Positions 7,847-34,159 of a stretch of 64,000 bases of DNA are shown one piece after another (position 1 is the first letter of the stretch; each line of letters opens with the position of its first letter). Location of the stretch: NCBI GenBank assembly GCA_965208325.1, contig OZ242326.1, forward strand, positions 4,352,001 to 4,416,000, read 5' to 3'. The translations under genes were made by a program, and so were the position numbers. This stretch comes from Candidatus Poribacteria bacterium (GTDB taxonomy: Bacteria > Poribacteria > WGA-4E > PCPOR2b). The notes beneath the pieces were generated by a model. It saw nothing but the letters and a program-made list of their open reading frames with translations, was not told the origin of the DNA and did no database searches.

Positions 7847-7899
7847 CGGGCCGTTCTTTGCAAAAACGGCATGATATGAAATGGACATCATTCCTAGTG

Positions 7900-9443: not shown

Positions 9444-11636
9444 TTACTTCACTATCACCATCCGACGTAACGCGTTGTAATCACCTGCACGGAATTGATA
9501 GAAATAAGTACCGCTTGTGACGCGTTCGCCGTTTTGGTTCCGCCCGTCCCAATACGCTGCATTCGTTTTGTCACGGTAGATGCCGGACTTCTGATGTCCC
9601 ATGTCCAGCGTTCGCACAATTTGGCCGCTCTGGTCGTAGATGTTTAAGGTCACGAGTGCATCGTTTGCCAACTGATACGGTATCCAGGTTTCGGGGTTGA
9701 ACGGATTCGGGTAATTTTGAAGCAACACTGTCCGTTTAATGTCTCCCAACGTAGTCAAGAAATTTCCCAACGGTTCCACGCCGACTCCAATGCCGGTATA
9801 AGAGTCAAGTTCCCAAAGCAACACAGCCCCATCGTAACCCGAGCTAGCCAGGGTGCCTCCGTCAGGGCTGAATGCAAGGCTATGCACCCACAAGGAATGC
9901 CCATGGAGCGAAGCTAGGAGTTCCCACGAATCGGTGTCCCAGAGACGAACGTTACCGTCGATACCCCCACTGGCGAGTGTGCGTCCGTCGGGACTGAACG
10001 CAAGGCTATTGACGGAATACGCATTCGGGATATTAAGGGTTCGCAGCAGTTCTCCCTTATCAACATTCCACAATAAAATTGATTCCCTACCCCCGCTTGC
10101 GAGGGTGCTGCCTCCTGGGCTGAACGCAACGCTATAGAAAGGGCCTTTATGCTCATGCAGTTTTCGCAGTTGTTCTCCTGTATCTACGTCCCACAGAATA
10201 AGCGCCTCCCAACCCGCGCTTGCCAGCGTTCCTCCGTCCGGACTGAACGCCACGCTATTCAGATCGTGCATATCCACGGTGAGTGTATGCCTAGCGTTCC
10301 CAGCACCGGCGTCCCACAAACGTACGGTGTTGTCCCAACTCGCACTTGCGATAATACTGCCGTCCGGACTGAACGCAACGTCTTTAATCGGAGCCGTATG
10401 ACCCTCAAGCTTTAGCTGCTCTTCTCCGGTATCGGCGTCCCGCACACGGACCGTGTTGCCCCAACTCTCGCTGGCAATGGTTTCGCCGTCGGGGCTGTAC
10501 GCAACGCTGACGCTACCACCAAAATCGCCATCGCCAAACGAGCGTCTGTGTTCTCCCGTTTCGGAGTCCCAAAGCCGGACAGCGTCCCCACTCGCACTTG
10601 CGACTGTGCCGCCGTCCGGGCTGAACGCGACGCTGTGAACTTGGGGGTAGTGTCCGATGATAGTGCGTAGCAGTTTACCCGATCCGGCGTCCCACAGTCG
10701 GAAAGTCTGGTCATGGCTCAAACCGGCAATCGTGCGTCCGTCGGGACTAAATGTAAAGGTATAGCACCAATGCGATTCGTTAAGGCGCCGCAACTCTTCT
10801 CCGGTTGCGGAGTTCCACAATCGGACAACTTGCCCTTCCGCGCTAGCAAGGATGTTCCCATCCGGACTAAATGCGACTGTATCGACCGAACCCGAAGCGG
10901 AAAGTGTACGCAGATGTTGTCCGGTTGTTGCGTCCCATAGGCGGACAGTTTTGTCATTGCTGCCGCTTGCGAGGATGCTGCCGTCCGGACTGAACGCAAC
11001 GCTATACACGTACGCCGTATGCCCCCCCAGCGTGCTTAGGAGGTCTCCAGTATCGGCGTCCCACAGGCCGATGGTTCGGTCTGCGCCCGCGCTAGCGATA
11101 ATACTGCTATCCGGGCTGAACGCTAAGCCGTTGACCCAACTTCCGTACCCGTTGAGCGTGCGAAGATGTCTTCCCGTTTCTGCATCCCAAAGTTCAATAT
11201 CTCGGTTCCCAGTTTCGCTTGCGATGGTGCGTCCGTCGGGGCTGTACGCAAGGCTGTTTGCCGCGCCCGACCCTTTAATCGTTTGCAGATGTTTTCCCGT
11301 TGCGGCATCCCACAGTCGAATGTCATCGTTCCAACTTGCCCCGGCGATTGTGCTGCCATCGGGGCTAATCGCAATGCTGTCGACGTCCGTATTCCCGACA
11401 AACAGATCGGTTTCCTTATGAGTCGCCGTATCGTAAAGCCATACACCGATTCCACTGGCGACCGCGAGTCCGGTACCATCGGGCGTATAAGCAATTTCGT
11501 GAATCCGGCCTTGCCCAATGCGCAATTTGGCGCCTTCGGGCAGCCCCCATTGCAGAGAATGCTGGGCATAGCTTTGCGGTAAACACAGCGCGGCAACGAA
11601 TAACAAGCTGAATTTGAAAACCAATGCCTTCTTCAT
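9444..11636 (-). CDS. Secreted WD40-repeat protein with C-terminal FlgD-Ig/T9SS-CTD-like domain (copy 4)
   Basis: Signal peptide; many GH..V.SVAFSPDG..LAS.S.D.TVRLWD repeats; C-terminal LLQNYPNPFNPETWIPYQL...WDGRN..GE.V.SG.YFY. Confidence 0.92.
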   Translation of the reverse strand: MKKALVFKFSLLFVAALCLPQSYAQHSLQWGLPEGAKLRIGQGRIHEIAYTPDGTGLAVASGIGVWLYDTATHKETDLFVGNTDVDSIAISPDGSTIAGASWNDDIRLWDAATGKHLQTIKGSGAANSLAYSPDGRTIASETGNRDIELWDAETGRHLRTLNGYGSWVNGLAFSPDSSIIASAGADRTIGLWDADTGDLLSTLGGHTAYVYSVAFSPDGSILASGSNDKTVRLWDATTGQHLRTLSASGSVDTVAFSPDGNILASAEGQVVRLWNSATGEELRRLNESHWCYTFTFSPDGRTIAGLSHDQTFRLWDAGSGKLLRTIIGHYPQVHSVAFSPDGGTVASASGDAVRLWDSETGEHRRSFGDGDFGGSVSVAYSPDGETIASESWGNTVRVRDADTGEEQLKLEGHTAPIKDVAFSPDGSIIASASWDNTVRLWDAGAGNARHTLTVDMHDLNSVAFSPDGGTLASAGWEALILWDVDTGEQLRKLHEHKGPFYSVAFSPGGSTLASGGRESILLWNVDKGELLRTLNIPNAYSVNSLAFSPDGRTLASGGIDGNVRLWDTDSWELLASLHGHSLWVHSLAFSPDGGTLASSGYDGAVLLWELDSYTGIGVGVEPLGNFLTTLGDIKRTVLLQNYPNPFNPETWIPYQLANDALVTLNIYDQSGQIVRTLDMGHQKSGIYRDKTNAAYWDGRNQNGERVTSGTYFYQFRAGDYNALRRMVIVK

Positions 11637-12105
11637 TGAAATTTTCCTCCTTGTTGAGTTCGCGGGTGCATCTCCGCGATTTCTACTTTTGGCGTACGTC
11701 CCTTGATTTAAAGCCTGGCTGAAGAAGAAAAAGTTACATGAACGTTTGGAGTTCTCGACTATTCATTTCAGAATATTGATTCTGAACCAATACAAGAAGA
11801 AATTATAATCTTCAAGCGATTTGCCCGCGAGTTGTGAGATGTTCAATTGGAATATCCGACTCCCCGCACTAGTTCCATTACAACGAAGGCATTCATGCAA
11901 ACCTGTATTTGGTACGATAGGACCATTTACATGTAAATTATACACCATTAGATGATTTACTTCAACTTTGACGCGAAAAACCTGATGTATCAAGGCGCGC
12001 GACAGTTTGAATTCCGTCATCTAGAGTGTTGGGTTTTGCATCAAGCTGCGCAGATTGAACGAATCCTTTGGAGAATAACCGTGCTTCACACTGTTCTGTT
12101 AGGCG

Positions 12106-14322
12106 TTACTTAACAATCGCCATCCGCCTTAGAGAAGCGTAATCACCCGCGCGGAGTTGATAGTAATACGCGCCGCTTGTGACGCGTTCTCCGTTCTGGT
12201 TGCGCCCGTCCCAATACGCGGCGTTCTCTTTGTCTTGGTAGACCCCCGGTTTTTGATGTCCAATGTCCAACCTGCGTACGATACGGCCGCTCTGGTCGTA
12301 GATGTTCAAAGTCACGAGCGCATCGTCTGCCAACTGATACGGTATCCAAGTTTCGGGGTTGAACGGATTTGGATAATTCTGCAGCAACGCAGTGCGTTTG
12401 ATGTCGCCAAGAGTCGTCAAGTGATTTTCCCTCGGTTCGACCCCAACTCCGATTGAAGTGCGAAGATCCCATAACAACACGGTGCCGTCCCAACTCCCGC
12501 TGGCGAGGGTGCGTCCCTCGGGACCGAATGTAACGCTATAGACACCATCCGTATGGCCGGTAAGCGTTTGCAGGTGTTTGCCAGTATCAACATCCCAGAG
12601 GCGGATTCTCCGATCTGCATTCGCGCTCACGAGGGTGCCGCCATCAGGGCTGAAATCAACGCTATTGACCCATCCGCCATGCCAAGTAATCGTCCGAAGG
12701 TGTTTGCCGGTATCGACGTTCCACAAGCGGATGGATCTATCCCAACCGCCGCTTGCAAGCGTACTGCCATCTGGACTGAACGCAATGCTCTGGATGGATA
12801 GCGTGTGTCCTTTAAGGACGCGCAGCCTTTCACCGTTATCGACGTCCCATAGTACGATAGTGGTTTTACCCCCACTGGCGAGGATTTTGCCGTCCGGGCT
12901 GTACGCAAGGCTTGAAACCCCAAACCTAGGGGTATGTACGCTGCTCCGTGTTCGTAAGAGTTCACCGGTATCGGCATCCCAAATACGGACGGTATTGTCC
13001 AAACTTCCGCCAGCGACGCGGCGTCCATCAGGACTGAACGCAACCCCATAAATCGAATTCGTATGCCCCATGAGCGTCCGTACGTGTTCTCCAGTAGCCG
13101 TGTCCCACAGACGAATGGTTAGGTCGCGACTTCCGCTTGCGATGCGGCGTCCATCCGGACTGAACACGACGTTCGTGACGTGCTTCTCATGCCCGGTGAG
13201 TGTGTGCAAGTGATCGCCGGTATTGGCGTCCCATAGGCGAACAGTTTCGTCCCCCCAGCTGCCGCTGGCAACCGTTCCGCCGTCTGGACTAAATGCGACA
13301 CTTCTGACCGAGCCCGTATACCCTGTCAGCGTTCCTAAGTGTTTGCCAGTAGCGGCATCCCACACGCGGACGGTACCGTCCCAACTCCCGCTTGCGAGTG
13401 TGCGTCCATCGGGACTGTACGCAACAGTGCCAACCCAATCCGTGTGTCCGTTTAGCGTTTGCAGGTGTTCGCCTGTTATTGTGTCCCACAGGCGGATTGA
13501 ATCGTCCCAGCTTCCGCTCGCAATGGTGCCGCCGTCGGGGCTGAACAAGACACTATTGACCGAATGCGTATGGCCGTTTAGTGTTCGCAGCCGTTTTCCC
13601 GTATTAGCATCCCATAGTAGGATGGAATTATCGTCACTACCGCTAACAATCGTATCACCGTCGGGGCTGAATGAAACACTGTGTACCGGATTCGTGTGAT
13701 CGTCTAGCGTTAGCAGGTGTTTTCCCGTAGACGTGTCCCATAGGCGGATTGTGGTATCTCTACTCCCGCTTGCGATGGTGCCGCCATCGGGACTGTACGA
13801 GACGATAATGACGTTGTCTGTATGCCCGCGGAGCGTATGCAGACTCTTTCCCGTTTCCGAGTCCCACAAATGGATGGTATTGTCGTAAGTCCCTCCTGCT
13901 AAAGTATCGCCGTTGGGACTGAACGAAACGTTAATCACCCAATCCCCGTAACCGTTCAGGGTTCTAAGGCGATTTCCCGTTTCCACATCCCACATACTGA
14001 GGATGTCCACACCGTCACTGGCACTGGCAATTGTACCCCCGTCGGGACTGAACGAAAAACCGCTAATTACTCCTGTATCCCCGGTAAGGAATGCGGCTTC
14101 TTTATGGGTTTCTGCATCGTAAAGCCATATTCCGATGCTGCTGGAAACTGCAAGTCGTTTGCCGTCTGGTGAATACTGTATTTCGCCTATCGAACCTCTA
14201 CCGAGCCGCGCTTTGGCGATTTCGGGTAGATGCCATTGAAGAGAATCTTGGGCGTAGCTGAATGGTACACATAGCGCGGCAACGAAGAAATAGTTAAGCT
14301 TGAAAATTGTGGATTTTTTCAC
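12106..14322 (-). CDS. Secreted WD40-repeat protein with C-terminal FlgD-Ig/T9SS-CTD-like domain (copy 3)
   Basis: Same architecture as its neighbours; GTG start after GGAGGA. Confidence 0.92.
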   Translation of the reverse strand: MKKSTIFKLNYFFVAALCVPFSYAQDSLQWHLPEIAKARLGRGSIGEIQYSPDGKRLAVSSSIGIWLYDAETHKEAAFLTGDTGVISGFSFSPDGGTIASASDGVDILSMWDVETGNRLRTLNGYGDWVINVSFSPNGDTLAGGTYDNTIHLWDSETGKSLHTLRGHTDNVIIVSYSPDGGTIASGSRDTTIRLWDTSTGKHLLTLDDHTNPVHSVSFSPDGDTIVSGSDDNSILLWDANTGKRLRTLNGHTHSVNSVLFSPDGGTIASGSWDDSIRLWDTITGEHLQTLNGHTDWVGTVAYSPDGRTLASGSWDGTVRVWDAATGKHLGTLTGYTGSVRSVAFSPDGGTVASGSWGDETVRLWDANTGDHLHTLTGHEKHVTNVVFSPDGRRIASGSRDLTIRLWDTATGEHVRTLMGHTNSIYGVAFSPDGRRVAGGSLDNTVRIWDADTGELLRTRSSVHTPRFGVSSLAYSPDGKILASGGKTTIVLWDVDNGERLRVLKGHTLSIQSIAFSPDGSTLASGGWDRSIRLWNVDTGKHLRTITWHGGWVNSVDFSPDGGTLVSANADRRIRLWDVDTGKHLQTLTGHTDGVYSVTFGPEGRTLASGSWDGTVLLWDLRTSIGVGVEPRENHLTTLGDIKRTALLQNYPNPFNPETWIPYQLADDALVTLNIYDQSGRIVRRLDIGHQKPGVYQDKENAAYWDGRNQNGERVTSGAYYYQLRAGDYASLRRMAIVK

Positions 14323-14432
14323 TGGAATCCTCCTCCGATTTTGCGTTGTGCATCCAAAAATACTCGTTCTATGTATCGTCAGACAACAATTTTATTAGAA
14401 ATACTCGGATTATCACCTCCAATCGTTATGTG

Positions 14433-16640
14433 CTATTTCAATATCACCATCTGCCTTAACGAAGTGTAATCGTCCGCGCGAAATTGATAATAATATCTGC
14501 CGCTCGCGACCGGTTCCCCGTTATGATTGCGGCCGTCCCAATATGCTGCGCTTGCTTTGTCTCGGTAGACGCCCGTTCTTTGAAGTCCAATGTCGAGTGT
14601 GCGGATAACATGACCGCTCTGATCATAGATGTTCAGCGTCACGAGCGAATCGTTTGCCAACTGATACGGTATCCAGGTTTCCGGGTTGAACGGATTCGGA
14701 AAGTTTTGCAGCAGCGCTGTCCTTTTAATGTTTCCCAGCGTAGTGATTTGACTTCCCAATGGTTCTACACTCAAAGCAATTAAAGAGGTAAGGTTCCACA
14801 CCAACACGGTCCCGTCCGAACTTCCACTGGCGAGCGCGCGTCCATTGACATTGAACGCAACGCTCCGGACCTCGTCCGTATGTCCAATTAAGGTTACCAA
14901 ATGTTCTCCAGATTTGGCTTCCCACAGCCGGACAGTATAGTCACCGCCTCCACTAGCGATGGTTTTGCCATCGGGACTGAACGCAACACTGTTTACCCTA
15001 GCCTCGTGCCCAGTCAGCGTTCGTAGGTGTTTTCCCCTATTAGTGTCCCAAAGACGGATGGTAGCGTCCGCACACCCGCTGGCGACGGTGCGTCCATCGG
15101 GGCTAAACGCAACGCTCCAAACCCAATCCGTATGTCCTTCAAGTGTTCGCAGAAGCCTTCCAGTAGCTGTTGCCCAGAGACGGACTGTATGGTCTCCACC
15201 TCCGCTGGCGATATTGTGTCCATCTGGACTGAACACAACGCTTTCCACGGGCAATGCGTGCCCATTGAACGTGCGCAGCCGTTTTCCGTTATTAACGTCC
15301 CAGAGATGGATAGAAGTGTCCGCGTTCCCGCTCGCTATTCTCTGTCCATCCGGGCTGAATGCAACGCTTATCACCGCCAACGTATTCCCTTTAAGCGTAC
15401 GTAGGGGTTTTCCAGTATCGGTGGACCACAGTTGAATGGTACGGTCCCAGCTTCCACTGGCGACGGTGCCGCCATTGGGACTAAACGCTACACTAGGAAC
15501 CGCCGATTTATGCCCCTCTAAGGTTCGCAGGTGAATTCCCGATTCGGGGTTCCACAAACGAATGTATCGGTCATTACTTCCACTCGCAAGCGTATCACTA
15601 ATGGGATTGAACGCAACGCTCTTCACCGGCCTTGTATGCCCGGCGATTGTTCTCCGGAGTTCCCACGAATGGCCGTCCCACAGACAGATTGTCCCGTCCA
15701 AACTCCCGCTGGCGAACATGCCGCCATCGGAACTGAATGCGACGCTGTCGACCCAATGCGTATGCCTGACGAGCGATCGAATGGGTTTGCCCGTATCCGC
15801 CGCCCACAGCCGAATTGTGTCGTCCAAGCTGCCGCTCGCAATCATGAGTCCATTGGGACTAAATTCAACGCAATTGACCATAGCATCATGTCCCAGGAGA
15901 GTTTGCAGGTTGTCACCAGTATCGGCGCTCCACAGTCGAATGGCATTGTCGCCGCCTCCGCTGGCAATAGTCCCGCCGTCCGGACTAAAGGCTACACTCC
16001 GCACCGAATCCTCATGCGCTTTTACTCTCCAAAGTCGTTCCCCGGTGCGGACGTTCCACAGGCGCATTGTATTATCCGCACCCCCGCTAACGAGCATGCT
16101 GCCGTCGGGGCTGAACGCGACACCATAAACCCAGGACGTGTTCCCAGTAAGCATTCTCAAATAATCGCCGGTATCGGCGTCCCACAGTCGGATGGTACGG
16201 TCTCCGCTTCCGCTTGCGATAATATCCCCATTAGGACTGAAGGCGACACTATTCACCGGACCCGTATGCCCTGTGAGCGTTTGCAGGTGATGGCCAGTAT
16301 TGGCATCCCACAGACGGACCGAACGGTCCTGGCTCCCGCTGACAAGCCTACTGCCATCGGGGCTGAACACTACGCTCCAGACTCGACCCGTATGCCCGGT
16401 CAACAAGGCGACCTCTTGACGCGTCGCCGGGTTGTAGATCCAAATACCGATGCTGCTAGCCACCGCAAGGCGCGTGCCGTTGGGGTAAAATTGTATTTCA
16501 TTTATCCTGCCCTTACCCAGCCGCGTTTTAGCACCTTCAGGTAAGCCCCATTGGGGAAAATCATGTGCAGTGCTGTGTGATAGACAGAATGCGGTAGCGA
16601 AAAAATATGCACTTAATTTGAAAAACAACGCTTTCACCAT
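14433..16640 (-). CDS. Secreted WD40-repeat protein with C-terminal FlgD-Ig/T9SS-CTD-like domain (copy 2)
   Basis: Same architecture; WD40 repeats and NFPNPFNPETWIPYQL tail. Confidence 0.92.
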   Translation of the reverse strand: MVKALFFKLSAYFFATAFCLSHSTAHDFPQWGLPEGAKTRLGKGRINEIQFYPNGTRLAVASSIGIWIYNPATRQEVALLTGHTGRVWSVVFSPDGSRLVSGSQDRSVRLWDANTGHHLQTLTGHTGPVNSVAFSPNGDIIASGSGDRTIRLWDADTGDYLRMLTGNTSWVYGVAFSPDGSMLVSGGADNTMRLWNVRTGERLWRVKAHEDSVRSVAFSPDGGTIASGGGDNAIRLWSADTGDNLQTLLGHDAMVNCVEFSPNGLMIASGSLDDTIRLWAADTGKPIRSLVRHTHWVDSVAFSSDGGMFASGSLDGTICLWDGHSWELRRTIAGHTRPVKSVAFNPISDTLASGSNDRYIRLWNPESGIHLRTLEGHKSAVPSVAFSPNGGTVASGSWDRTIQLWSTDTGKPLRTLKGNTLAVISVAFSPDGQRIASGNADTSIHLWDVNNGKRLRTFNGHALPVESVVFSPDGHNIASGGGDHTVRLWATATGRLLRTLEGHTDWVWSVAFSPDGRTVASGCADATIRLWDTNRGKHLRTLTGHEARVNSVAFSPDGKTIASGGGDYTVRLWEAKSGEHLVTLIGHTDEVRSVAFNVNGRALASGSSDGTVLVWNLTSLIALSVEPLGSQITTLGNIKRTALLQNFPNPFNPETWIPYQLANDSLVTLNIYDQSGHVIRTLDIGLQRTGVYRDKASAAYWDGRNHNGEPVASGRYYYQFRADDYTSLRQMVILK

Positions 16641-16706: not shown

Positions 16707-18911
16707 CTACTTCAAAATCACCATCTGCCTTAACGACGTATAATCACCCGCGCGAAGTTTATAGTAATACGAGCCGCTTGGGACGCGTTCTCCGTTTTGA
16801 TTGCGTCCATCCCAATACGCTGCGCGCACCTTGTCTCGGTAGATTCCCGATTTTTGATGTCCAATTTCGAGTGTGCGGACGATATGACCGCTCTGGTTGT
16901 AGATGTTCAACGTCACGAGCGCATCGTCCCCCAACTGATACGGAATCCAAGTTTCGGGGTTGAACGGATTCGGAAAATTTTGCAGCAGCGCTGTCCGTTT
17001 GATGTCTCCCAAGGTGGTAATGCGGTTTCCCAACGGTTCCACGCCAAATGGTATCGAAGAGGGAAGTTCCCACAGCAATACGGTGCCGTCCCCACTCGCG
17101 CTGGCGAGTGCGCGTCCGTCGGCACTGAACGCAAGGCTTCGGACTTCACCTGTATGCCCTGCGCGCACTTGCAGTTTTTTTCCCGTATGGATGTCCCACA
17201 AGCGAATGGTACAGTCCACACCGCTACTGGCGAGTATTCGCCCATTGGGGCTGAACGCAAGGCTTAAGACCCAATTCGTATGCCCTTTGAGCGTTCGCAG
17301 ACGTATTCCGGTATCAGTGTCCCACAGACGGATGGTAAGGTCACCACTCCCGCTAGCGAGCGTTCTGCTATCGGGACTAAATGCTACGCTCGTAACCGAA
17401 TTCGAATGTCCTTTCAGCGTTCGCAGGTGATTTCCGGTATGGGTGTCCCACAGACGCACCGTAGTGTCGCGGCTGCCGCTAGCAATCGTGCCACCGTCTG
17501 GGTTAAACGCAACAACTTCAACCTCGCTATTATGCCCCATGAAGGTCAGCAGCAGTTTTCCGGTATCGGTGTCCCGCAGCCGCACTGTACCGTCTCGTCT
17601 CCCGCTAGCAATTGTTCGCCCATCCGGACCGACCGCAACGCAACTGAACCCTATCCCTTGCCCGTCGTGGGTTCGCAGGCGTCTTCCGGTATCGGTGTGC
17701 CACAGACTTATGGTATCGTGTGCACTTCCACTTGCGATAGTGCGCCCATCGGGACTGAATCCAATGCTAAATACGCTTGATGAATGCCCCTTCAGCGTTC
17801 GCAGGTGTTTTCCCGTATCGGCATCCCGCAGTCGGATTGTATGGGTTTCACCGCTGTACGCGATGATGCTGCTATCGGGACTAAACACAACGCTATAGGC
17901 CCCTAACGTATATCCTTTGAAGGTTCGGCGGTGATTTCCGGTATTGGCGTCCCACAGACGGATTGTAGTGTCGTCGCTCCCACTTGCGATGGTGCCGCCA
18001 TCAGGACTGAACGCTACGGTATCAACATCATCCTTATGACCTATGAGCGTTCGGCGGTGTTTTCCGGTATTGGCATTCCATAGACGGATTGTGTCGTCCC
18101 GGCTCCCACTAGCAATGGTGCGACCATCTGGACTGAACGCAACACTATAGACGGCAGATTCATGTCCCGTAAGCGTTTGGCGGTGTTTTCCGGTATCGGC
18201 GTCCCACAGGCGAATAGTCTTGTCCCAACTCCCGCTTGCAATTGTACGTCCATCGGGGCTGTACACAACCTTAACGATGCCGTCTTCATGCCCCTTGAGC
18301 GTTTGCAGAAGTTTTCCAGTATCGACGTCCAACAGTCGAATAGAGTTGTCCCCAATCGCACTAGCGATGGTGCGGCCATCTGGACTGAACGCAACACTAG
18401 AATGCAAACCCCCACGCAAACCATCCCTGAATATATGCAGGAGTCCTCCGGTGCGGGCGTTCCACAGACGGATGCTGCCCAAACCCGTACTAGCGATGGT
18501 ACGGCCATCTGGACTGAACGCAATGCTAGAGATCCAATTGCTATGGTTGAGCGTTCGAAAGGGTTTTCCCGTGTCGGTGTCCCATAACCGAATAGTATAG
18601 TCCCAACTCCCGCTAGCAATTGTGCGGCCATCCGGACTGAACGCAACGCATTTGACATAGTATGAATGCCCGTTGATTAGGGCGACCTCTTGATAGGTCT
18701 CCGTATCGTAAAGCCAAATTCCGATGCTACTGGCAACAGCAAGTCGAGTGCCGTCAGGCGAATACTGAAGTTCACTTATTTCGCCTTTACCGAAGCGTGC
18801 TTTAGCGTCCTCGGGACGACCCCATTGCGGAGAGTCTTGGGCAAAGCTGGGCGGTAGATATAGGGAGGTTACTAACAGTAAGCTAAGCTCGAAAACAATC
18901 GCCTTTTTCAT
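16707..18911 (-). CDS. Secreted WD40-repeat protein with C-terminal FlgD-Ig/T9SS-CTD-like domain (copy 1)
   Basis: Same architecture; GGAGGA RBS. Confidence 0.92.
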   Translation of the reverse strand: MKKAIVFELSLLLVTSLYLPPSFAQDSPQWGRPEDAKARFGKGEISELQYSPDGTRLAVASSIGIWLYDTETYQEVALINGHSYYVKCVAFSPDGRTIASGSWDYTIRLWDTDTGKPFRTLNHSNWISSIAFSPDGRTIASTGLGSIRLWNARTGGLLHIFRDGLRGGLHSSVAFSPDGRTIASAIGDNSIRLLDVDTGKLLQTLKGHEDGIVKVVYSPDGRTIASGSWDKTIRLWDADTGKHRQTLTGHESAVYSVAFSPDGRTIASGSRDDTIRLWNANTGKHRRTLIGHKDDVDTVAFSPDGGTIASGSDDTTIRLWDANTGNHRRTFKGYTLGAYSVVFSPDSSIIAYSGETHTIRLRDADTGKHLRTLKGHSSSVFSIGFSPDGRTIASGSAHDTISLWHTDTGRRLRTHDGQGIGFSCVAVGPDGRTIASGRRDGTVRLRDTDTGKLLLTFMGHNSEVEVVAFNPDGGTIASGSRDTTVRLWDTHTGNHLRTLKGHSNSVTSVAFSPDSRTLASGSGDLTIRLWDTDTGIRLRTLKGHTNWVLSLAFSPNGRILASSGVDCTIRLWDIHTGKKLQVRAGHTGEVRSLAFSADGRALASASGDGTVLLWELPSSIPFGVEPLGNRITTLGDIKRTALLQNFPNPFNPETWIPYQLGDDALVTLNIYNQSGHIVRTLEIGHQKSGIYRDKVRAAYWDGRNQNGERVPSGSYYYKLRAGDYTSLRQMVILK

Positions 18912-19646: not shown

Positions 19647-20693
19647 TTATCTTGCCGATGTACTGTCCAACTGCTTGACCCATCCCCAACTCAGCGGCTG
19701 CTTGCCCGCGGGAGATACGGCAAATTCGACGACAAAATCGGGATCAAACCAAGCGGGTCCCCGGTTAATCGATCCAGCTTCTCCAATAACCGGCAGGTTA
19801 AACCGATTTTCGTGATTTCCTTTTCCAGCTGCATTCTTCACATCGTAGATGACTATCCAAGCGGAACCGCCCGCGAACATAATCGTTGCTACTTGCTTGT
19901 CGTTCGGATTCCAGGTTATATCTTGTTTTTCTTCCTGGCTAAAGATTTCAAATACGTTTTGGGCTCCATCTTCGCCAACTTCGGCGTCCATTACCCACAC
20001 GTTTCCGGTTCCGTCTCGCCGCGTAATCCATGCAATCCGGTCTCCTTCAAACGAAAATTCCGGCTGAATATCCTCGCCCTTATGATTTGTGTAATTCACC
20101 TGGTTTCCGCCATCGGAATTCATCACGTAGATGTCTCCGAGCGTGCGTCCGCGTTTGGATGAGAACGCAATCCGCCGACCGTCCGGCGACCAAGATGGCA
20201 TTTTGTCTGGGGCGGGGTCGTTTGTGAGATTGGCAATAATATTGCCACCATCCGACATTACATAAATTTCGAGGTTCCCGTCCCTATTAGAAGCGATGGC
20301 GAGCTTTCTGCCGCCAGGGTGCCAATCGGGCCAGCTATCTACGCCTTCATGATCGGTGATTCGCCGCAGATTCTTGCCGTTGGCGTCTACGATATAGATG
20401 TCGGTATTTTTCTGTGAAGTCGCATGGAAGGCGAGTTTGCGGCCATCCGGTGACCATTCAAGTCCAAGCGGCCGCGGGTCTTCGTTATCTGTTGCAAGGT
20501 TGAACAATGCATTCACAGCACCGCCGCCTTTCCCTTCAGGATTAGTCAAAAAAATTGTCTCCTCGCCGGATACAGCTATTGTCGCTTCGTTGGGTGCGAT
20601 CGCCTGCCCGCCCATAGGAAAAACGAGGTTGATTAGGATTACTAATTTGGAGAATGCCAAGATTCTCAAAGTCAATAGCGTTCTGTTTTGCAT
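19647..20693 (-). CDS. TolB-like/PD40 beta-propeller, secreted
   Basis: WSPDGRKLAF, SNRDGN.EIYVM..DG repeats; start MQNRTLL after an AG-rich RBS. Confidence 0.85.
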   Translation of the reverse strand: MQNRTLLTLRILAFSKLVILINLVFPMGGQAIAPNEATIAVSGEETIFLTNPEGKGGGAVNALFNLATDNEDPRPLGLEWSPDGRKLAFHATSQKNTDIYIVDANGKNLRRITDHEGVDSWPDWHPGGRKLAIASNRDGNLEIYVMSDGGNIIANLTNDPAPDKMPSWSPDGRRIAFSSKRGRTLGDIYVMNSDGGNQVNYTNHKGEDIQPEFSFEGDRIAWITRRDGTGNVWVMDAEVGEDGAQNVFEIFSQEEKQDITWNPNDKQVATIMFAGGSAWIVIYDVKNAAGKGNHENRFNLPVIGEAGSINRGPAWFDPDFVVEFAVSPAGKQPLSWGWVKQLDSTSAR

Positions 20694-20854
20694 AAGTCTT
20701 TCCTCCTCTTTACAATTTGAAAATTCACGGCAAACGCCGTCTATCCAAAAACTGTCCGAGAACCAATTGGAATAGTAAATTAATTTGGATCGAGTGTTGT
20801 GCTGCACCTTATTTTCAACTGTATGGCTCGCAAATTCTGCACGTGCCGTAGTGC

Positions 20855-22405: not shown

Positions 22406-23434
22406 TTATTCTGGCCTGTAAATCCCTGTGCCTAGCTGTTTAATCCAACTCCAGGTCAAGGGGCGCTTTTTGCCGGGCGATACTGCATACGGCACAACAA
22501 AGTCCGGGTCAAACCAATCCGGAGAACGGCTGCCTTGCCATTCTGCGCCAAGCGGCAAGACTTTTCCATCTGCACGTACATCGTCGACAACCTTATCTGA
22601 TTCCATCACGGCAATTTCCACAAACGGAGCATCTGAAAGGACGAGCATTGTTCCATCGGGAGACCACGCCGGGTCAAAGTTACATCGCGGCCCAGGCGTG
22701 AGGTTTTTCACGTTTTCACCGTTGGCGTCCATGGTGTGCAGATCGCCCGTCCCATTGCGCCTAGATGTCCAGACAATCTTTTGGCTGTTCGGCGACCAAC
22801 GGGGATAGCTGTCATCGCCGCGGTGGTTAGTCAAATTCAAGGGGTTTTCACCACTCGCATCCATCGTGTATACATCTGAAATAGTTCTACCCCGCTTGGA
22901 AGCGAAGGCAATCATTCGACCGTCGGCTGACCAATCAGGTTGCCTGTCGGGAGCAGCGTCGTTAGTCAGGTTCACCCCGACGTTCCCGTTAGCTGTCAAT
23001 GTGTAGATTTCGTAATTGCCATCCCGATTGGTGGTGAACGCAAGCCGTTGTCCGCTAGGATGCCACGTGGGCCAACTATCCTCGGCTTCATGGTTGGTCA
23101 GTCTCTTGAGCTTCTCGCCATCGGCGTTAACCACGTAGATATCAATGTTGCCGTCCAACTTGGTATGGAACGCCACCCTTTGTCCATCTGGCGACCACCT
23201 AACCCCTAACGGCTGTTCGTCCGCTTTAAGCCGTAAATCAATTAACGGACGAAGATTTGCACTGTCGGGGTCCATCAGCCAAAGGTCGCCTTCCGGTTGG
23301 CTGCTCGAAAACACAATGGTCGGATCCTCGGGTGCCCGCTGCGCAATTGCGCCGGACGCAACAACCATGCTGCCAATAAGGAACGTAGTTACTGAAAATA
23401 CAAGCCGCGTTGCGAATGGTATTCTATGTTGCAT
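22406..23434 (-). CDS. TolB-like/PD40 beta-propeller, secreted (paralog of 19647 and 25613)
   Basis: PD40 repeats; shared SWPTWHPSG, SKRGRT.SD segments. Confidence 0.85.
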   Translation of the reverse strand: MQHRIPFATRLVFSVTTFLIGSMVVASGAIAQRAPEDPTIVFSSSQPEGDLWLMDPDSANLRPLIDLRLKADEQPLGVRWSPDGQRVAFHTKLDGNIDIYVVNADGEKLKRLTNHEAEDSWPTWHPSGQRLAFTTNRDGNYEIYTLTANGNVGVNLTNDAAPDRQPDWSADGRMIAFASKRGRTISDVYTMDASGENPLNLTNHRGDDSYPRWSPNSQKIVWTSRRNGTGDLHTMDANGENVKNLTPGPRCNFDPAWSPDGTMLVLSDAPFVEIAVMESDKVVDDVRADGKVLPLGAEWQGSRSPDWFDPDFVVPYAVSPGKKRPLTWSWIKQLGTGIYRPE

Positions 23435-25612: not shown

Positions 25613-26665
25613 TCAGTCTCGCGGCCCTAAATTTTTTATCCATCCCCACGTAAGCGGGCGCTTGTCAGCAGGCTCAACATCGAATGGCGGCGCTGGAAAT
25701 GCGGGGTCGAACCAAGCTGGAGACCGGGCGCGCCTGCCTTTATCTAGCACAAGAATCTGTAAGAAATTTTTCGCCGCCTTGAGGTCCGCTTCGAGCGTTT
25801 CTCCAACGCCAAGCTCGTCGATTGCGTGGTAAAGGAAGATGCCTTGCGGGAATGACAGGGAGGCGATGCTTTTGCCGTCTGGAGACCATGTAGCATCCTT
25901 CTTCTCCTCGGTGCTCTTTACCCACCGCTGATTTTCGCCATCCGAATCAATGATGTAGATGTCACCCGTGCCGTCTCGCCGAGATACCCACGCCAATGTT
26001 TCACCGTCAGGCGACCACCTCGGTTGAATATCCTGGCCTTTATGATTGGTGATATTCTGCAGATTTTCGCCTTTCGAATCCATCACATAGATATCTGCAA
26101 TCGTGCGGCCTCGCTTGGTCGAAAACGCAATCTTTCGCCCGTCAGGCGACCAAGACGGGTCAATATCGGGCGCAGCGTCTGCTGTGAGGTTTCCGCCGAC
26201 ATTGCCTTGCGCCGTCATGGTGTAGATTTCAAAATTCCCGTCACGGTTGGTGGCGAACGCCAGTTTTTGACCGCTCGGATGCCACGTGGGCGAGCTGTCT
26301 TCCGCCTCATGCTCGGTAAGCCTCCGCAAATTTTTCCCGTCGGCGTTCACGGAATATACGTCAATGTTGTCCTTCAAGTTAGTATGGAAAGCCAACATTT
26401 CACCGGTTGGGGACCATACCAAGCCCGCCGGCACCGGCTCGCCGTCAATTTCTAATACCAAGAAAGGAGGGTTTACACCTGCCGGATCCATTGACCAGAT
26501 GCCTACTTCGCCCGCCACACCGTCGGTGCCCACGACTATCGTTGGCACCATTGGTGCTTGAGCCTGCCCGCTCTGGAGCGGAGCAATACAGTTTATGAGA
26601 AGCACGCCGATGAACACGACCGGCATGAATATGTCCCGGATCTGAAGGTTTTGTCGGATTTGCAT
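25613..26665 (-). CDS. TolB-like/PD40 beta-propeller, secreted
   Basis: PD40 repeats; GAGGTG RBS before MQIRQ. Confidence 0.85.
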   Translation of the reverse strand: MQIRQNLQIRDIFMPVVFIGVLLINCIAPLQSGQAQAPMVPTIVVGTDGVAGEVGIWSMDPAGVNPPFLVLEIDGEPVPAGLVWSPTGEMLAFHTNLKDNIDVYSVNADGKNLRRLTEHEAEDSSPTWHPSGQKLAFATNRDGNFEIYTMTAQGNVGGNLTADAAPDIDPSWSPDGRKIAFSTKRGRTIADIYVMDSKGENLQNITNHKGQDIQPRWSPDGETLAWVSRRDGTGDIYIIDSDGENQRWVKSTEEKKDATWSPDGKSIASLSFPQGIFLYHAIDELGVGETLEADLKAAKNFLQILVLDKGRRARSPAWFDPAFPAPPFDVEPADKRPLTWGWIKNLGPRD

Positions 26666-26817
26666 GGTTATCACCTCATCGTGTTGGTTAAGGTTAATGG
26701 ACAATCGCTAAGAGAATCCGGGAAGACGAATTCCTCGGCGCATTTACGCTCGGTATTGCCTGTGAAAACTCGACCGGTTTTTAGCTTGTTGAAACACGCG
26801 GTGAAGGCGGTTAAATA

Positions 26818-29371: not shown

Positions 29372-29382
29372 CGTAACGGGTT

Positions 29383-30567: not shown

Positions 30568-30713
30568 AACATCGCAAAATGCGAATAGATAGGGGAAAAC
30601 CCGCCATGCGTAAGTGCACACGACGGGATTTTCCCGAATTCAAATTCAATCAGAGCGCCGCGAATTGCTAACGGCCAACAATACTAGCGTCGCTGCAGTT
30701 GAGGTTAAATTAG

Positions 30714-31595
30714 CTATCTGCGGGTTTTTATATCCCCCCATGTTGTGGACAGTTTTTCAACCGGTGCAACACCGAGCGCAGTCGTAACGCCAAGCCCATC
30801 ATTCATGATGGCAGCGATTTCTTCTCCGCTCAAAACCCGGCTGAATACCCCGATATCGTCCACTGTAACCTGTGCGGAAGAGCCATACCTGCCGCAAATA
30901 TGCCACGGACCGTGTTCATTGGTCCGAACAAACGGCTCCGTTCCGGGACCGCGATTAACAATTTTACCATTCTGGTATATCACTGTCTCTTTACCATTTC
31001 CCGTAAAGGCGTAGTGGTTCATCTCGTCGCCGTTTGCGGGGAACCACCAACGATGGTCCAGGCGAGGCTTGCCGTATTGCCACAGGACAAACTCGCCCTC
31101 GCCATCATCCCACGGAAAGTGAACCAGAATTCGGTTGTCCCACGGCCCGCCGGGTTCAAATGAGAAGAGATCTTTTTGGGCAAAGGTGCCGATTTTGTCG
31201 TTTCGCTGCACCCATGCGGTTATTGTAATCTCTGTCTCCTTGGGAAGATTGCCGGCATCCGCTTCGTCTTCGTCAGGCCCTAACCGCTCATCCTTGATGA
31301 AGTTTGGGACTATGATAACGCTGCCCTCGCCTTCACATTTCAGAGCCGTGCCGAATTTGCCGTCAACCCACGACGGCCTTAGCGCATCGCTGTCAGGACG
31401 ATTACCTTGCAGCCTGCCGTCCATGTCGTGGGGGTTGCCCGACGCGTCATTGGCAGTGACTCCTTCCCCCTCATCAAATAGCCAAACGGCAATAATGTCG
31501 TCGGGGTCGAGTGCGGCATGAGTCGGGGCTGTCACCATAATCCCGAACAATGAAACGGCGCTGACGCATACCAGCGTTCTTAGCATGAGTTTCAA
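30714..31595 (-). CDS. Secreted LamG-like jellyroll protein (paralog 3)
   Basis: WLFDEGEG, WVDGKFG.AL, TITAWV, HYAFT, DDIGVFSRVL; TTG start at 31595 aligns with the paralog start MKFVLR and follows GGAGG. Confidence 0.82.
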   Translation of the reverse strand: MKLMLRTLVCVSAVSLFGIMVTAPTHAALDPDDIIAVWLFDEGEGVTANDASGNPHDMDGRLQGNRPDSDALRPSWVDGKFGTALKCEGEGSVIIVPNFIKDERLGPDEDEADAGNLPKETEITITAWVQRNDKIGTFAQKDLFSFEPGGPWDNRILVHFPWDDGEGEFVLWQYGKPRLDHRWWFPANGDEMNHYAFTGNGKETVIYQNGKIVNRGPGTEPFVRTNEHGPWHICGRYGSSAQVTVDDIGVFSRVLSGEEIAAIMNDGLGVTTALGVAPVEKLSTTWGDIKTRR

Positions 31596-31602
31596 TTTGC
31601 AT

Positions 31603-31765
31603 TTCCTCCATCTACAGCCGGTACGGTATAGGATGGCCGAATGCTGCCGCTGTAGAAAAACCCATCCCGTATACCTGTACACGGCGAGTTTTTCAAATAT
31701 TGAATCTACATACAACGGCGCCAGTTGCTAAACTGCAAGCAAAACACCACTCGCGCCGTTGTGGT
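31603..31765 (-). ncRNA. Candidate structured 5' leader RNA, copy 1
   Basis: Near-identical to 32678-32840; two stems, with compensatory/GU changes in the distal stem. Confidence 0.45.
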
Positions 31766-31785
31766 TATGGGTAGAAATCTCTTAG

Positions 31786-32670
31786 CTAATTTTTGGTTTT
31801 TATCACCCCCCATGTTGTTGATATTTTTTCATCCGGTTGAACATCAAGAGCCGCCGCGGCGGCAAGCCCGTCGAGCATGATAGATGCAATTTCACCTTGG
31901 GTCAATACCCGGCTAAATACGCCGATGTCGTCCACTGTAACCTGAGCGGAAGAGCCAAACCTGCCGCAAATATGCCATGGACCGTGTTCATCGGTCCGAA
32001 TAAACGGCCTCGATCCGGGACCGTGATGCACCATTTTACCATTCTGGTAAATCACTGTGGCTTCGCTATTGCCGGTAAATGCGTAGTGGTTCATCTCGCC
32101 GCCGTTTGCGGGAAACTCCCACGGATTGTCGAAGTCAGGTCTGCCGTATTGCCACATTATAAACTCGCCCTCTCCGTCATCCCACGGAAAGTGCACCAGA
32201 ATCCGGTTGTCCCACGGACCGCCGGGTTGGAACGAAAAGAGGTCTCTCTGAGCCGCCGTGCCGATTTTATCGTTGCGCTGCACCCATGCGGTTATGGTAA
32301 TCTCCGTCTCGTCGGGAATATTGCCGGCAGACGCATCGTGTTCGTGGCGTCCCAATCGCTCATCCTTGATGAAATTCGGGATAACGATAACGCTGCCCAT
32401 ACCTTCACATTTCAGGGCCGTGCCGAATTTTCCGTCTACCCACTTCGGTTTTTCGCCGGCGTTGTGCGCCCGCTTGGTGACTTCCAACCTACCGTCCATG
32501 TCGAGCGGGTTTCCCGAAGCGTCGTTGGCAGTGTTGCCTTCGCCCTCATCGAATAGCCAAATTGCAATGATGTCGGCGGGGTCTAGGAAGGCGTAAGCCG
32601 GGATAATAACGATAAACCCGAACAATGAAACAGTGGCGGCGCATGCTAGTGCCCTTAGCACAAACTTCAT
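31786..32670 (-). CDS. Secreted LamG-like jellyroll protein (paralog 2)
   Basis: Same motifs; highly similar to both neighbours. Confidence 0.85.
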   Translation of the reverse strand: MKFVLRALACAATVSLFGFIVIIPAYAFLDPADIIAIWLFDEGEGNTANDASGNPLDMDGRLEVTKRAHNAGEKPKWVDGKFGTALKCEGMGSVIVIPNFIKDERLGRHEHDASAGNIPDETEITITAWVQRNDKIGTAAQRDLFSFQPGGPWDNRILVHFPWDDGEGEFIMWQYGRPDFDNPWEFPANGGEMNHYAFTGNSEATVIYQNGKMVHHGPGSRPFIRTDEHGPWHICGRFGSSAQVTVDDIGVFSRVLTQGEIASIMLDGLAAAAALDVQPDEKISTTWGVIKTKN

Positions 32671-32677
32671 TTTACAT

Positions 32678-32840
32678 AACCTCCATCTACAGCCGGCACG
32701 GTATAGGATGGCCGAATGCTGCCGCTATAGAAAAACCCATCACGTATACCTGTACACGGCGAGTTTTTCGAAAACCAAATCTACGTGAAACGACGCAAAT
32801 TGCTAAACCGCGAGCAAAACATTACTTGCACCGTTTTGGT
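32678..32840 (-). ncRNA. Candidate structured 5' leader RNA, copy 2
   Basis: Duplicate of 31603-31765. Confidence 0.45.
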
Positions 32841-32843
32841 TAA

Positions 32844-33096
32844 AAGCCTGTTTGAATAATGGGCGGCAATGCCATTCTTGGGGGTTTGAGTTGCTATAAC
32901 CGGTGGAACTTCTATCGCGCGGGATTTTCTATCGCCTTCGCTATTCGCTCAGTTAATCCAATTTGGTCGCTCGATTCCATCAAATACCTTACTCCGGCAT
33001 TGGGCGGGGCAAGATGCCCCGCCTACGGAGGGTAGTGAGGTACTATACACCTGCCGCACCTATGGTACTGTATAAAATGAATTTTCACACAGGTTC
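32844..33096. mobile_element. Non-autonomous MITE (IS5-like ends) carrying one REP
   Basis: Ends AAGCCTGTTTGAATA / TTTTCACACAGGTTC, flanked by a TAA...TAA duplication; body aligns with 39312-40037. Confidence 0.7.
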
Positions 33097-33144
33097 TAAG
33101 AGAATGTATATATAGAATAAATTGCGGCCTTAATCACGTCCACT

Positions 33145-33179
33145 AAAGAAAAACCCGCCCTACACACGTGCAGGACGGG
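33145..33179 (-). terminator. Intrinsic terminator after the LamG gene at 33278
   Basis: The - strand reads CCCGTCCTGCA-CGTG-TGTAGGGCGGG followed by TTTTTCTTT. Confidence 0.75.
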
Positions 33180-33277
33180 TTGTTTTGGAAATCACCTTTG
33201 CTGAAGCGCCGCGAGCTGCAAAGCGTATTCACGTTCATTACTCACAGTGCTTGGGTTTTAGGCACGACAACGAAAAA

Positions 33278-34159
33278 CTATTTGGGAGACGACTTAATTT
33301 CTCCCCATGTTGTCGATAATTTTTCAGCCGGTTCAACACCGAGGGCTGCAATTGCGAGTCCTTTCTGCTGAATGGACGCGATTTCGTCATCGCTAAGAAC
33401 TCGGCTGAACACCCCAACGTCATCGACTATAACTTGAGCCGAGGAACCGAACCTTCCGCCGATGTGCCAGGGACCGTGTTCGACGGTTCGAACAAACGGT
33501 TTCGCACCGGCGCCCAGATGGACAAATTCGCCATTCTGGTATATGACTGTCTCTTCACCGTTGCCGGTAAAGGCGTAGTGATTCATTTCGCCGCCATTTC
33601 CGGGAAATTCCCAGTTGGTGCCTTGGAACGGTTTACCATACTGCCACATAATAAACTCGCCTGCGCCGTCATCCCATGGGAAGTGTACCAAAATTCGGTT
33701 ATCCCATGGACCACCGGGCTCATATGAAAACAGGTCTTTTTGCGCCGCGCTGCCGAGTTTATCCAGCCGCTGCACCCATGCCGTAATGGTAATGGTTGTT
33801 TCATCGGGAAGATTTCCGGCAGCTTCATCCTCTTCATCAGGACCTAAACGCTCGTCCTTGTTGAAATTCGGGATATTGATTACACTGCCTGCACCTTCGC
33901 ATTTCAAGGCTTTGCCGAACTTGCCGTCAACCCATTGAGGTCTCAGGTTATCGCTGTCGTTAGCACCGCCTTCAAGCGTACCGTCCATGCCCTTGGGGTT
34001 GTCCGACGAATCTACGGTCTTTTTGCCTTCGCCTTCGTCAAACAGCCAAATAGCGACAATGTCAGCCGGGTCAAGTGCCGCATAAGTCGGGACTGTAACC
34101 AATAGCCCGATCATAGCAACAGCGCTGACAAATGCCAGTGTTTTTAGCGTCGATTTCAT
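33278..34159 (-). CDS. Secreted LamG-like jellyroll protein (paralog 1)
   Basis: Same motifs; AAGGAGG RBS before MKSTLK. Confidence 0.85.
   Translation of the reverse strand: MKSTLKTLAFVSAVAMIGLLVTVPTYAALDPADIVAIWLFDEGEGKKTVDSSDNPKGMDGTLEGGANDSDNLRPQWVDGKFGKALKCEGAGSVINIPNFNKDERLGPDEEDEAAGNLPDETTITITAWVQRLDKLGSAAQKDLFSYEPGGPWDNRILVHFPWDDGAGEFIMWQYGKPFQGTNWEFPGNGGEMNHYAFTGNGEETVIYQNGEFVHLGAGAKPFVRTVEHGPWHIGGRFGSSAQVIVDDVGVFSRVLSDDEIASIQQKGLAIAALGVEPAEKLSTTWGEIKSSPK

Follow-up and report, generated by a model that had tools for sequence, protein, structure and literature searches.

The question raised by this locus is whether a short peptide shared by the C-terminal regions of otherwise dissimilar exported proteins represents a sorting or anchoring signal and, if so, of what kind. 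The window analysed is a stretch of 64,000 nt from a Candidatus Poribacteria bacterium (GCA_965208325.1, contig OZ242326.1, positions 4,352,001-4,416,000, forward strand). A first-pass annotation had listed ten copies of the motif there, and all ten were found in place and as written; their coordinates were confirmed by translation, and every copy lies on the minus strand (Table 1). The signal-like N-terminal segments that it had ascribed to all ten proteins were likewise recovered as hydrophobic segments in 10/10 by a hydropathy heuristic, and the neighbouring TPR, FG-GAP/ASPIC and FGE proteins, said to lack the motif, are indeed absent among the HMM matches described below, as are the DUF4159 neighbours. 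One element of that account needs revision: it counted three unrelated folds, but PD40 and WD40 proteins are both beta-propellers, and the window therefore holds two fold classes, LamG and beta-propeller.

Table 1. Tag copies in the 64,000-nt window (positions are those of the window).
Tag	Form	Position	Strand	Carrier protein	Context
VAPVEKLSTTWGDIK	terminal	30726..30770	-	LamG protein 30714-31715	3 residues (TRR) then stop; HMM 27.5 bits
VQPDEKISTTWGVIK	terminal	31798..31842	-	LamG protein 31786-32670	3 residues then stop
VEPAEKLSTTWGEIK	terminal	33293..33337	-	LamG protein 33278-34198	4 residues then stop
VSPAGKQPLSWGWVK	terminal	19674..19718	-	PD40/TolB-like protein 19647-20807	8 residues then stop
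VSPGKKRPLTWSWIK	terminal	22439..22483	-	PD40/TolB-like protein 22406-23434	10 residues then stop
VEPADKRPLTWGWIK	terminal	25634..25678	-	PD40/TolB-like protein 25613-26704	6 residues then stop
VEPLGNFLTTLGDIK	internal, L-variant	9735..9779	-	WD40 protein 9444-11636	CTD 9447-9734 adjoins
VEPRENHLTTLGDIK	internal, L-variant	12397..12441	-	WD40 protein 12106-14322	CTD 12109-12396 adjoins
VEPLGSQITTLGNIK	internal, L-variant	14724..14768	-	WD40 protein 14433-16640	CTD 14436-14723 adjoins
VEPLGNRITTLGDIK	internal, L-variant	16998..17042	-	WD40 protein 16707-18911	CTD 16710-16997 adjoins

The core of the tag reads V-x-P-x-x-K-L-x-T-T-W-G-x-I-K, with few residues then remaining to the C-terminus; the wider consensus, hydrophobic-[A/S]-V-x-P-x-x-K-L-x-T-T-W-[G/A]-x-[I/L]-K, spans about 17-19 residues. 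Among 125 short tails the tryptophan is invariant (125/125), and the V, P, middle K and last K are kept in 96%, 80%, 87% and 98%, respectively. What follows the last K is a stub of 1-14 residues (mode 3) that is rich in R, otherwise mostly polar and devoid of any hydrophobic stretch, and that differs in length and kind even among close orthologs. Homologs of the LamG protein at 31786-32670 retain the tail even where overall identity drops to 26% (range 26-34%), with W287 the same in 26/26 sequences.

Position is as constrained as sequence. An iterated HMM, with seeds picked by position and scoring blind to it, was run on every ORF in the six reading frames of the 4.7-Mb genome, and 139 carriers reached 10 bits or above; the tag ends 1-15 residues from the stop in 127 and 96 residues from it in 12, so that every carrier (139/139) bears the tag at its terminus or at the junction with a CTD resembling that of type IX secretion systems (T9SS). 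The first round of the same search gave 112 matches at 9 bits or more (98 terminal, 12 at 96 residues, 2 elsewhere), and a loose regular expression applied to 60,259 six-frame ORFs gave 56, of which 43 lie within 14 residues of the stop, 10 lie at 96, and the remaining 3 are poor matches elsewhere in the ORF. A back-translated DNA pattern matched this genome 13 times and, read backwards as a control, not once. Chance origin of the tag copies in this genome is excluded. The 139 carrier ORFs form 62 clusters and account for some 3% of all coding bases in the genome. Many of these clusters are tandem paralogs, which would suit a functionless 3' module that duplication or recombination had multiplied, or else a nucleotide element at gene ends; yet the peptide is conserved throughout the phylum while its codons vary freely from copy to copy, the tryptophan holds while the flanking linker and stub drift, and the reversed pattern is silent. 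To such an artefact we attach almost no credence.

Which proteins carry the tag is similarly informative. A signal-like N-terminus, as judged by the hydropathy heuristic, co-occurs with it in 132/139 carriers. Clustering within this genome yields 75 LamG-like and 46 propeller carriers, together with smaller groups comprising DUF1080, cohesin, DUF3108-like, FG-GAP_2 and unnamed families; genome- and phylum-wide, at least eight Pfam families are represented (including LamG, PD40, WD40, FG-GAP, DUF1080, cohesin, CBM9 and NPCBM) in addition to unnamed ones. By this heuristic and these family matches, carriers are mostly Sec-exported, glycan-binding or propeller proteins. Three familiar kinds of C-terminal signal were considered and rejected on the properties of these proteins: a type I secretion signal, given the signal-like N-termini; the beta-signal of outer-membrane proteins, as carriers have soluble LamG, propeller or CBM folds and last residues that are variable and mostly polar; and a ligand of PDZ domains or tail-specific proteases, since K may lie anywhere between 1 and 14 residues from the C-terminus, or 96 from it in the internal form.

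Structure prediction places the tag outside the domains that precede it. In the AlphaFold model of the LamG protein at 31786-32670, residues 278-294 have pLDDT below 50 and no secondary structure, and the Pfam LamG match stops before the tail. In a model of the last 140 residues of the WD40 protein at 16707-18911, the tag and the ensuing LLQNFPNPFNP (residues 26-57) again fall below 50, and the CTD sandwich (60-138) is modelled at pLDDT 84-91. By structure comparison this sandwich has the FlgD-Ig/T9SS-CTD fold (FlgD, E 5e-5) and also resembles PorZ, PorU and translocon-bound cargo CTDs (E 1e-3 to 2e-2). In both contexts modelled, LamG and WD40-CTD, the segment is not a strand of the fold, and the tag is predicted to trail the folded domain on a flexible linker. 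These models bear directly on the suggestion that the tag is a structural element, either the last strand or hairpin completing each carrier domain or a family-by-family oligomerisation device. Two tag sub-types do follow families, with K-L-x-T-T-W-G-x-I-K on LamG proteins and K-R-P-L-T-W-G-W-L-K on PD40 proteins, as such a role would have it; set against this are the low confidence and missing secondary structure of the segment in both models, the early end of the Pfam LamG match and the recurrence of one motif on at least eight unrelated families, and we regard a structural role as very unlikely.

The four WD40 tags of the window have L instead of W and a K exactly 96 residues from the stop, and continue as R-T-A/V-LLQN(Y/F)PNPFNPETWIPY into the FlgD-Ig/T9SS-like CTD. 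Against TIGR04183 these four proteins score 31.3 (the WD40 protein at 9444-11636), 20.5, 19.2 and 22.2 bits, one of the four exceeding the cut-off of 23, and the LamG and PD40 proteins of the window give no match. Across this genome the tag occurs on 14-15 of 47 CTD ORFs, always ending 96 residues from the stop, which is where the CTD would be cut off. Junction tags are found on WD40, FG-GAP and ASPIC proteins, with L or F replacing W and the CTD adjoining. The L/F form at the junction is present in 83/176 genomes of the phylum and the W form, likewise 96 residues from the stop, in 8/176, amounting to about 300 L/F copies against 9 with W. Given this systematic difference between a terminal W and a pre-CTD L or F, the two forms may differ in function. 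About 30 of the 47 CTD proteins in this genome lack the tag altogether, so it does not act as a T9SS cleavage site in general.

These same observations bear on whether the tag could be a processing site only, cut after ...[I/L]-K by a periplasmic or surface peptidase that removes the stub or the CTD and has no role in localisation. Conservation does stop sharply at the K, beyond which lie either 1-14 variable residues or a whole 96-residue CTD, and the PorU-like enzymes considered below are C25 peptidases, the family of the gingipains, whose cleavage follows Lys or Arg. However, the loss of 1-3 polar residues offers no obvious benefit for which the tag would be kept on thousands of proteins, 17 conserved residues are many for a cleavage site, and the CTD proteins without a tag would lack the site; this reading is in our judgement improbable.

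Beyond the single genome, the tag is found in 176/176 genomes of the phylum by a strict or relaxed pattern. The strict pattern matches in 173 of them, some 4,000 matches in total against none for the control, and the other three carry a relaxed variant (56-106 matches against 1-3 for the control). In other Poribacteria 162/163 distinct matches end no more than 15 residues from the stop, the last having run off its locus. A scan of all species placed 137/138 in Poribacteria among the matches listed. Two metagenome-assembled genomes labelled 'uncultured bacterium' belong to Poribacteria as well. The lone Deltaproteobacteria match was rejected as a true carrier: it gave no listed HMM match, its genome shows no enrichment (13 pattern matches against 11 for the control), and we put it down to chance or to a stray contig. 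The tail is covered by no model of Pfam or NCBIfam, tails submitted alone retrieve no family at E values up to 10, and no description of the tag was found in the openly accessible literature searched. The first-pass description of a non-transmembrane linear segment that occurs alone or in tandem with a CTD and has no named family thus stands, and among the matches listed the tag looks like an undescribed, Poribacteria-specific short linear peptide. Such universality has a cost, in that the phylum offers no tag-free genome for phylogenetic profiling.

What might read the tag? Candidate T9SS-like machinery is present in this genome as PorU-, PorV- and SprA-like genes. Two PorU-like ORFs of the C25 family, each some 2,100 residues long and sharing 33% identity, have collinear pieces that sum to about 432 and about 344 bits against a cut-off of 420; the best of eight PorV-like paralog matches reaches 104 bits against 250, and the pieces of a SprA-like ORF sum to about 169 against 200. 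Unlike in the T9SS, GldK, GldL, GldM and GldN were not found here: the GldK search returned generic FGE-domain matches at no more than 119 bits against a cut-off of 350, and the GldL, GldM and GldN models matched no control genome either. That T9SS parts fall below curated cut-offs counts against a T9SS link. At least two PorU-like matches occur in 40/41 sampled genomes, including basal families, and a PorV-like ortholog in 41/41; in the genomes sampled these candidates are as universal as the tag. The PorU-like genes have housekeeping or MoxR-like neighbours that tell nothing further, and an examination of these neighbourhoods and of FGE proximity found no receptor, peptidase or anchor for the tag. 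FGE-like neighbours, considered as a modifying enzyme or a PorK analogue, were rejected because their proximity is not significant: 4/12 lie no more than 5 kb from a tag gene, where 2.0 would be expected (P = 0.14).

The reading that we favour, with confidence evenly divided for and against, is that the tag is a Poribacteria-specific address or anchoring label, possibly tied to T9SS-like PorU/PorV parts, with recognition, cleavage and anchoring as its putative functions. A shared component of the cell envelope would recognise the tag at or near the mature C-terminus. Removal of the CTD at the junction, the role that PorU has in Bacteroidota, would leave WD40, FG-GAP and ASPIC proteins ending in the tag plus about two residues, a state that short-tailed proteins resemble from the start. 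The likeliest partners would be divergent attachment parts of T9SS type: the pair of PorU-like C25 peptidases found across the phylum, together with the PorV-like barrels. Excerpts from work on other organisms cut both ways: CTD cargo of Prevotella intermedia is described as bearing, upstream of the CTD core, a motif conserved at the cleavage site (excerpt of PMC11969387), although its PT/GI consensus is unlike the tag, whereas CTD cleavage in Porphyromonas gingivalis is described as independent of sequence (excerpt of PMC4804311), which counts against the favoured explanation. Moreover, lacking a CTD, the short-tailed proteins have no route across the outer membrane by way of the canonical T9SS, and they may be retained in the periplasm. 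A bolder proposal, which we consider rather unlikely, is a second, undescribed C-terminal sorting branch in which a disordered tag of about 17 residues with an invariant Trp would replace the 90-residue CTD in the attachment, or even the passage through the outer membrane, of upwards of 100 lectin-like proteins in each cell. The tag would then be read by one of two ancient PorU-like paralogs, and the L/F form would represent the same site of attachment, held inactive for as long as the CTD is in place.

Like the type A CTD of the T9SS (TIGR04183/PF18962), the tag is C-terminal on Sec-exported, often glycan-binding proteins. Unlike it, the tag, at 15-19 residues, is followed by 1-14 residues and no CTD in 127/139 carriers, and is predicted to be disordered instead of a folded domain; the folded C-terminal beta-sandwich of about 70-100 residues is present in the four WD40 proteins of the window and absent from the 127 short-tailed carriers. 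With LPXTG/sortase, PEP-CTERM/exosortase, GlyGly-CTERM/rhombosortase and PGF-CTERM/archaeosortase it has in common a short, lineage-specific motif that recurs close to the C-terminal end of many exported proteins of unrelated kinds and, as in sortase-type tripartite signals, a variable 'leaving' part after the motif. In those signals the motif leads into a transmembrane helix, hydrophobic in character, and then a basic cluster, and the tag has no such helix; no dedicated sortase-like gene was found for it.

A further analogy is with docking elements. Dockerin binds cohesin and the TonB box binds TonB, in each case a short cargo element meeting one common receptor. By analogy, the tag too is modular, independent of fold, borne on a flexible linker and associated with carbohydrate-active or carbohydrate-binding carriers, although a dockerin is far longer and the tag has no evident calcium-binding repeats. 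The corresponding alternative is a docking peptide unrelated to the T9SS, which would bind non-covalently to some scaffold or envelope polymer peculiar to Poribacteria, with beta-strand augmentation as one conceivable mode. Lectins and propellers would thereby be assembled into a coat, either periplasmic or at the surface, with the CTD serving export of some carriers only. This alternative draws on the linear, disordered, Trp-centred character of the tag and its flexible linker, on carriers that are mostly carbohydrate-binding modules and propellers, on the predominance of carriers without a CTD, and on the unconstrained residues beyond the last K, from which it follows that a fixed carboxylate register is not needed. 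Conversely, no candidate receptor was found, and neither the fixed placement at the CTD boundary nor the switch from W to L or F there is predicted by docking alone. On balance we think it rather unlikely.

The favoured reading, of an address or anchoring label, has implications that reach beyond this locus. More than once, a C-terminal tag shared throughout a lineage has pointed the way to new sorting machinery, as with sortase, exosortase, rhombosortase and the T9SS, and the present tag provides a peptide bait for finding its own machinery. The organisms that carry it are dominant but uncultivated symbionts of sponges, and the tag picks out, from sequence alone, what is probably the envelope or surface 'lectin-ome' in contact with the host matrix. 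It also reopens a puzzle dating from 2014, when CTD proteins were reported from the phylum without detected Por structural genes (as excerpted from PMC3909097). More broadly, a profile HMM of the tag would better annotate thousands of proteins now called 'hypothetical' or 'LamG domain'. Among 84 carriers from other genomes, Pfam matches comprise 43 LamG, 4 PD40, 2 CBM9, 2 DUF3108-like, 2 DUF1080, 1 NPCBM, 1 discoidin (F5/8 type C) and 1 DUF4960, and 28 carriers without a Pfam match bear the tag all the same.

The tag, a short C-terminal peptide of the V-x-P-x-x-K-L-x-T-T-W-G-x-I-K type, is a real, strongly selected and phylum-wide linear motif on exported proteins of many folds, and it is absent from the curated libraries and the literature searched. 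Re-derived and translated coordinates place the ten motif peptides of the window where the first-pass annotation had them. The three LamG proteins (PF13385) terminate in the motif plus 3-4 residues and the three PD40/TolB-like proteins (PF07676) in the motif plus 6-10 residues. In the four WD40 proteins L replaces W and the final K lies exactly 96 residues before the stop, followed by R-T-A/V-LLQN(Y/F)PNPFNPETWIPY and then by a FlgD-Ig/T9SS-type C-terminal domain (CTD); against TIGR04183 these proteins score 31.3, 20.5, 19.2 and 22.2 bits (cut-off 23). Among the neighbours, the TPR, FG-GAP/ASPIC and FGE-sulfatase proteins, already described as lacking the motif, are indeed not among its matches, and neither is the DUF4159 protein.

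The window is part of a single 4.71-Mb contig, and a loose regular expression run over 60,259 six-frame ORFs of this genome gave 56 matches, 53 of them either terminal or 96 residues ahead of the stop. After one iteration, an HMM seeded with these matches finds 139 ORFs that score at least 10 bits: 127 hold the tag at most 15 residues from the stop, 12 at about 96 and none elsewhere. Below 10 bits, positions are scattered. Of the 139 carriers, 132 have a hydrophobic N-terminal 11-mer a few residues past a start codon by a hydropathy heuristic (Kyte-Doolittle of at least 2.0 over the 11-mer) that is not a signal-peptide predictor, and five of the other seven are short ORF fragments. The genome's carriers form 62 clusters and account for 3.1% of bases. 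All-against-all BLAST divides them into 75 LamG-like proteins, 46 propellers (PD40 proteins of ~340 and ~630 residues, plus WD40+CTD), two four-member groups, one pair and 8 singletons; among 15 representatives, Pfam further recognizes 3-keto-disaccharide hydrolase/DUF1080, cohesin, DUF3108-like and FG-GAP_2+CTD proteins, and several without any family. Among 84 complete carriers from other genomes, a set tilted towards the LamG sub-type by the search pattern, Pfam assigns 43 LamG, 4 PD40, 2 CBM9, 2 DUF3108-like, 2 DUF1080, 1 NPCBM, 1 F5/8 type C, 1 DUF4960 and leaves 28 proteins unmatched. Propellers and carbohydrate-binding sandwiches are the common carrier theme.

When 137 copies are aligned on the final K (position 0; K in 98%), the tag shows a hydrophobic residue (-16), A/S (-15), V (-14, 96%), P (-12, 80%), K (-9, 87%), L (-8, 58%), T (-6 and -5), W (-4, in 125/125 short tails), G/A (-3) and L/I (-1). 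In each of the 12 CTD-linked copies, position -4 is L or F and the sequence continues R-T-A-L-L-Q-N. In the short tails the final K is followed by 1-14 residues, most often 3, that are enriched in R and polar residues, contain no hydrophobic stretch and vary freely between orthologs while the tag is constant. The tag does not fit five known classes of signal: a tripartite sortase signal, as it has no transmembrane helix; an outer-membrane-protein beta-signal, whose defining features it lacks; a type I secretion signal, given the signal-like N-termini of the carriers; a PDZ-type ligand, for want of a fixed register; and the T9SS CTD, as no such domain is present in the 127 short tails. Pfam and NCBIfam have no model that covers the tail, either in whole carriers or when isolated 40-residue tails are searched at E-values as high as 10; nor does the literature searched describe the tag. 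The closest published concept is a motif at the cleavage site of Prevotella intermedia proteins, located upstream of both short and long CTDs (PMC11969387).

Whether the segment is instead an integral strand of each fold was addressed with AlphaFold2. In a 294-residue LamG protein (26-sequence alignment), the LamG body is followed by a tail, 278-294, that lacks secondary structure and has pLDDT below 50. In the model of a WD40 carrier's C-terminal 140 residues (12-sequence alignment), residues 26-57, comprising the tag and LLQNFPNPFNP, are coil with pLDDT below 50, and the CTD sandwich at 60-138 reaches pLDDT 84-91. Among solved folds, FlgD Ig-like domains match this CTD best (E 5e-5), and PorZ, PorU and translocon-bound T9SS cargo CTDs resemble it more weakly. 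Because the tag is disordered in both contexts folded, the models make it a linear motif carried on a linker rather than a strand of the LamG or WD40-CTD fold.

The pattern V.P..K..TTWG.[ILF]K, which favours the LamG sub-type, was back-translated and searched against 185,579 species, each represented by one genome, giving at least 138 loci. Among the 138 listed, 133 are titled Poribacteria, 4 'uncultured bacterium' (two MAGs, both of which proved to be of the same phylum) and 1 lies in a Deltaproteobacteria MAG, where it has no listed HMM match and the pattern is not enriched (13 matches versus 11 in the control). On the loci listed, 162 of 163 distinct HMM matches fall within 15 residues of the stop. 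Within the GTDB phylum the strict pattern occurs in 173 of 176 genomes (~4,000 matches; none for the reversed pattern), and the remaining three have 56-106 matches to a relaxed pattern versus 1-3 in the control. Given that the all-species list is a lower bound, confinement to Poribacteria is very likely, though not proven. The three genomes without the strict pattern (G013, G014, G016), all of one family, use a variant without the T-T pair, K-(L/A)-A-A-x-W-(G/A)-x-L-K, which could serve co-variation analysis with a receptor; many K-K-K-A-Q-W-G-x-[IL]-K-like ends occur there too.

That the tag serves in sorting, anchoring or processing is argued from anatomy and analogy and stands at about even odds. 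In the genome's CTD ORFs (n=47) the CTD starts 79-91 residues from the stop, and 14-15 of the 47 carry the tag. Were the CTD cut at its boundary, the protein would end in the tag plus about two residues, just as the short-tailed proteins do; on this junction geometry, the main argument, the tag may have one function at the mature C-terminus. In Porphyromonas gingivalis, CTD cleavage is termed sequence-independent (PMC4804311). The L/F form stands directly before LLQN(Y/F)PNPFNP in 83 of 176 genomes (~300 matches, 14 in this genome), whereas the W form precedes a CTD in only 9 matches in 8 genomes; these too lie 96 residues ahead of the stop, in WD40-like, ASPIC-like and other carriers. The main objection to treating the terminal and junction forms as simply equivalent is this unexplained W versus L/F bias. 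The ~30 tagless CTD ORFs of the genome have other conserved pre-CTD modules ending ...P-x-(E/K)-T before LL-x-N-Y-P-N-P-F (e.g. ...QRGxLxLxxLLAxLxPKET), which suggests that the phylum has two or more kinds of CTD junction.

Kamke et al. 2014 (PMC3909097) placed TIGR04183 on poribacterial WD40 proteins and reported finding no Por structural genes. In this genome, two PorU-like ORFs of ~2,100 residues, 33% identical to each other in the peptidase region, span the whole NF033707 model in collinear pieces; each is twice the length of that PorU model (1,095 positions). At least two PorU-like matches occur in 40 of 41 sampled Poribacteria genomes, basal families included, and one family has a third paralog of ~1,750 residues. 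The PorV model has 8 matches in this genome, in at least 6 different open frames, and one PorV-like ORF has a single-copy ortholog in all 41 genomes sampled. An SprA-like ORF of 2,196 residues matches weakly, GldK matches proved to be generic FGE-domain matches, and the GldL, GldM and GldN models, which matched no control genome either, have no match in this one. Gene neighbourhoods were uninformative, linking no particular paralog to the tag, and a specific tie between a PorU-like sortase and the tag is a lead rather than a finding.

Features with coordinates (window positions, except G000:C1, the genome's own contig)
Feature	Location	Strand	Remark
PorU-like C25 peptidase ORF 1	G000:C1:4021620-4027895	+	outside window
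PorU-like C25 peptidase ORF 2	G000:C1:3715230-3721577	-	outside window
DUF4159 protein	20855-22327	-	490 residues
Multiheme c-type cytochrome	8412-9347	-	exported
Tandem repeat	7903-8269		159 nt, 2.3 copies, 88% matches
Gene upstream of repeat	5918-7846		
Spurious ORF	7597-8388		263 residues

The DUF4159 protein, with an N-terminal membrane segment and a long Pro-rich linker, sits between tag-bearing PD40 genes and is itself tagless. Directly downstream of the WD40 array lies the cytochrome gene, with paired CXXCH motifs and MtrC/MtrF-like domain matches; the tandem repeat that adjoins it, just downstream of the gene at 5918-7846, gives rise to the spurious ORF.
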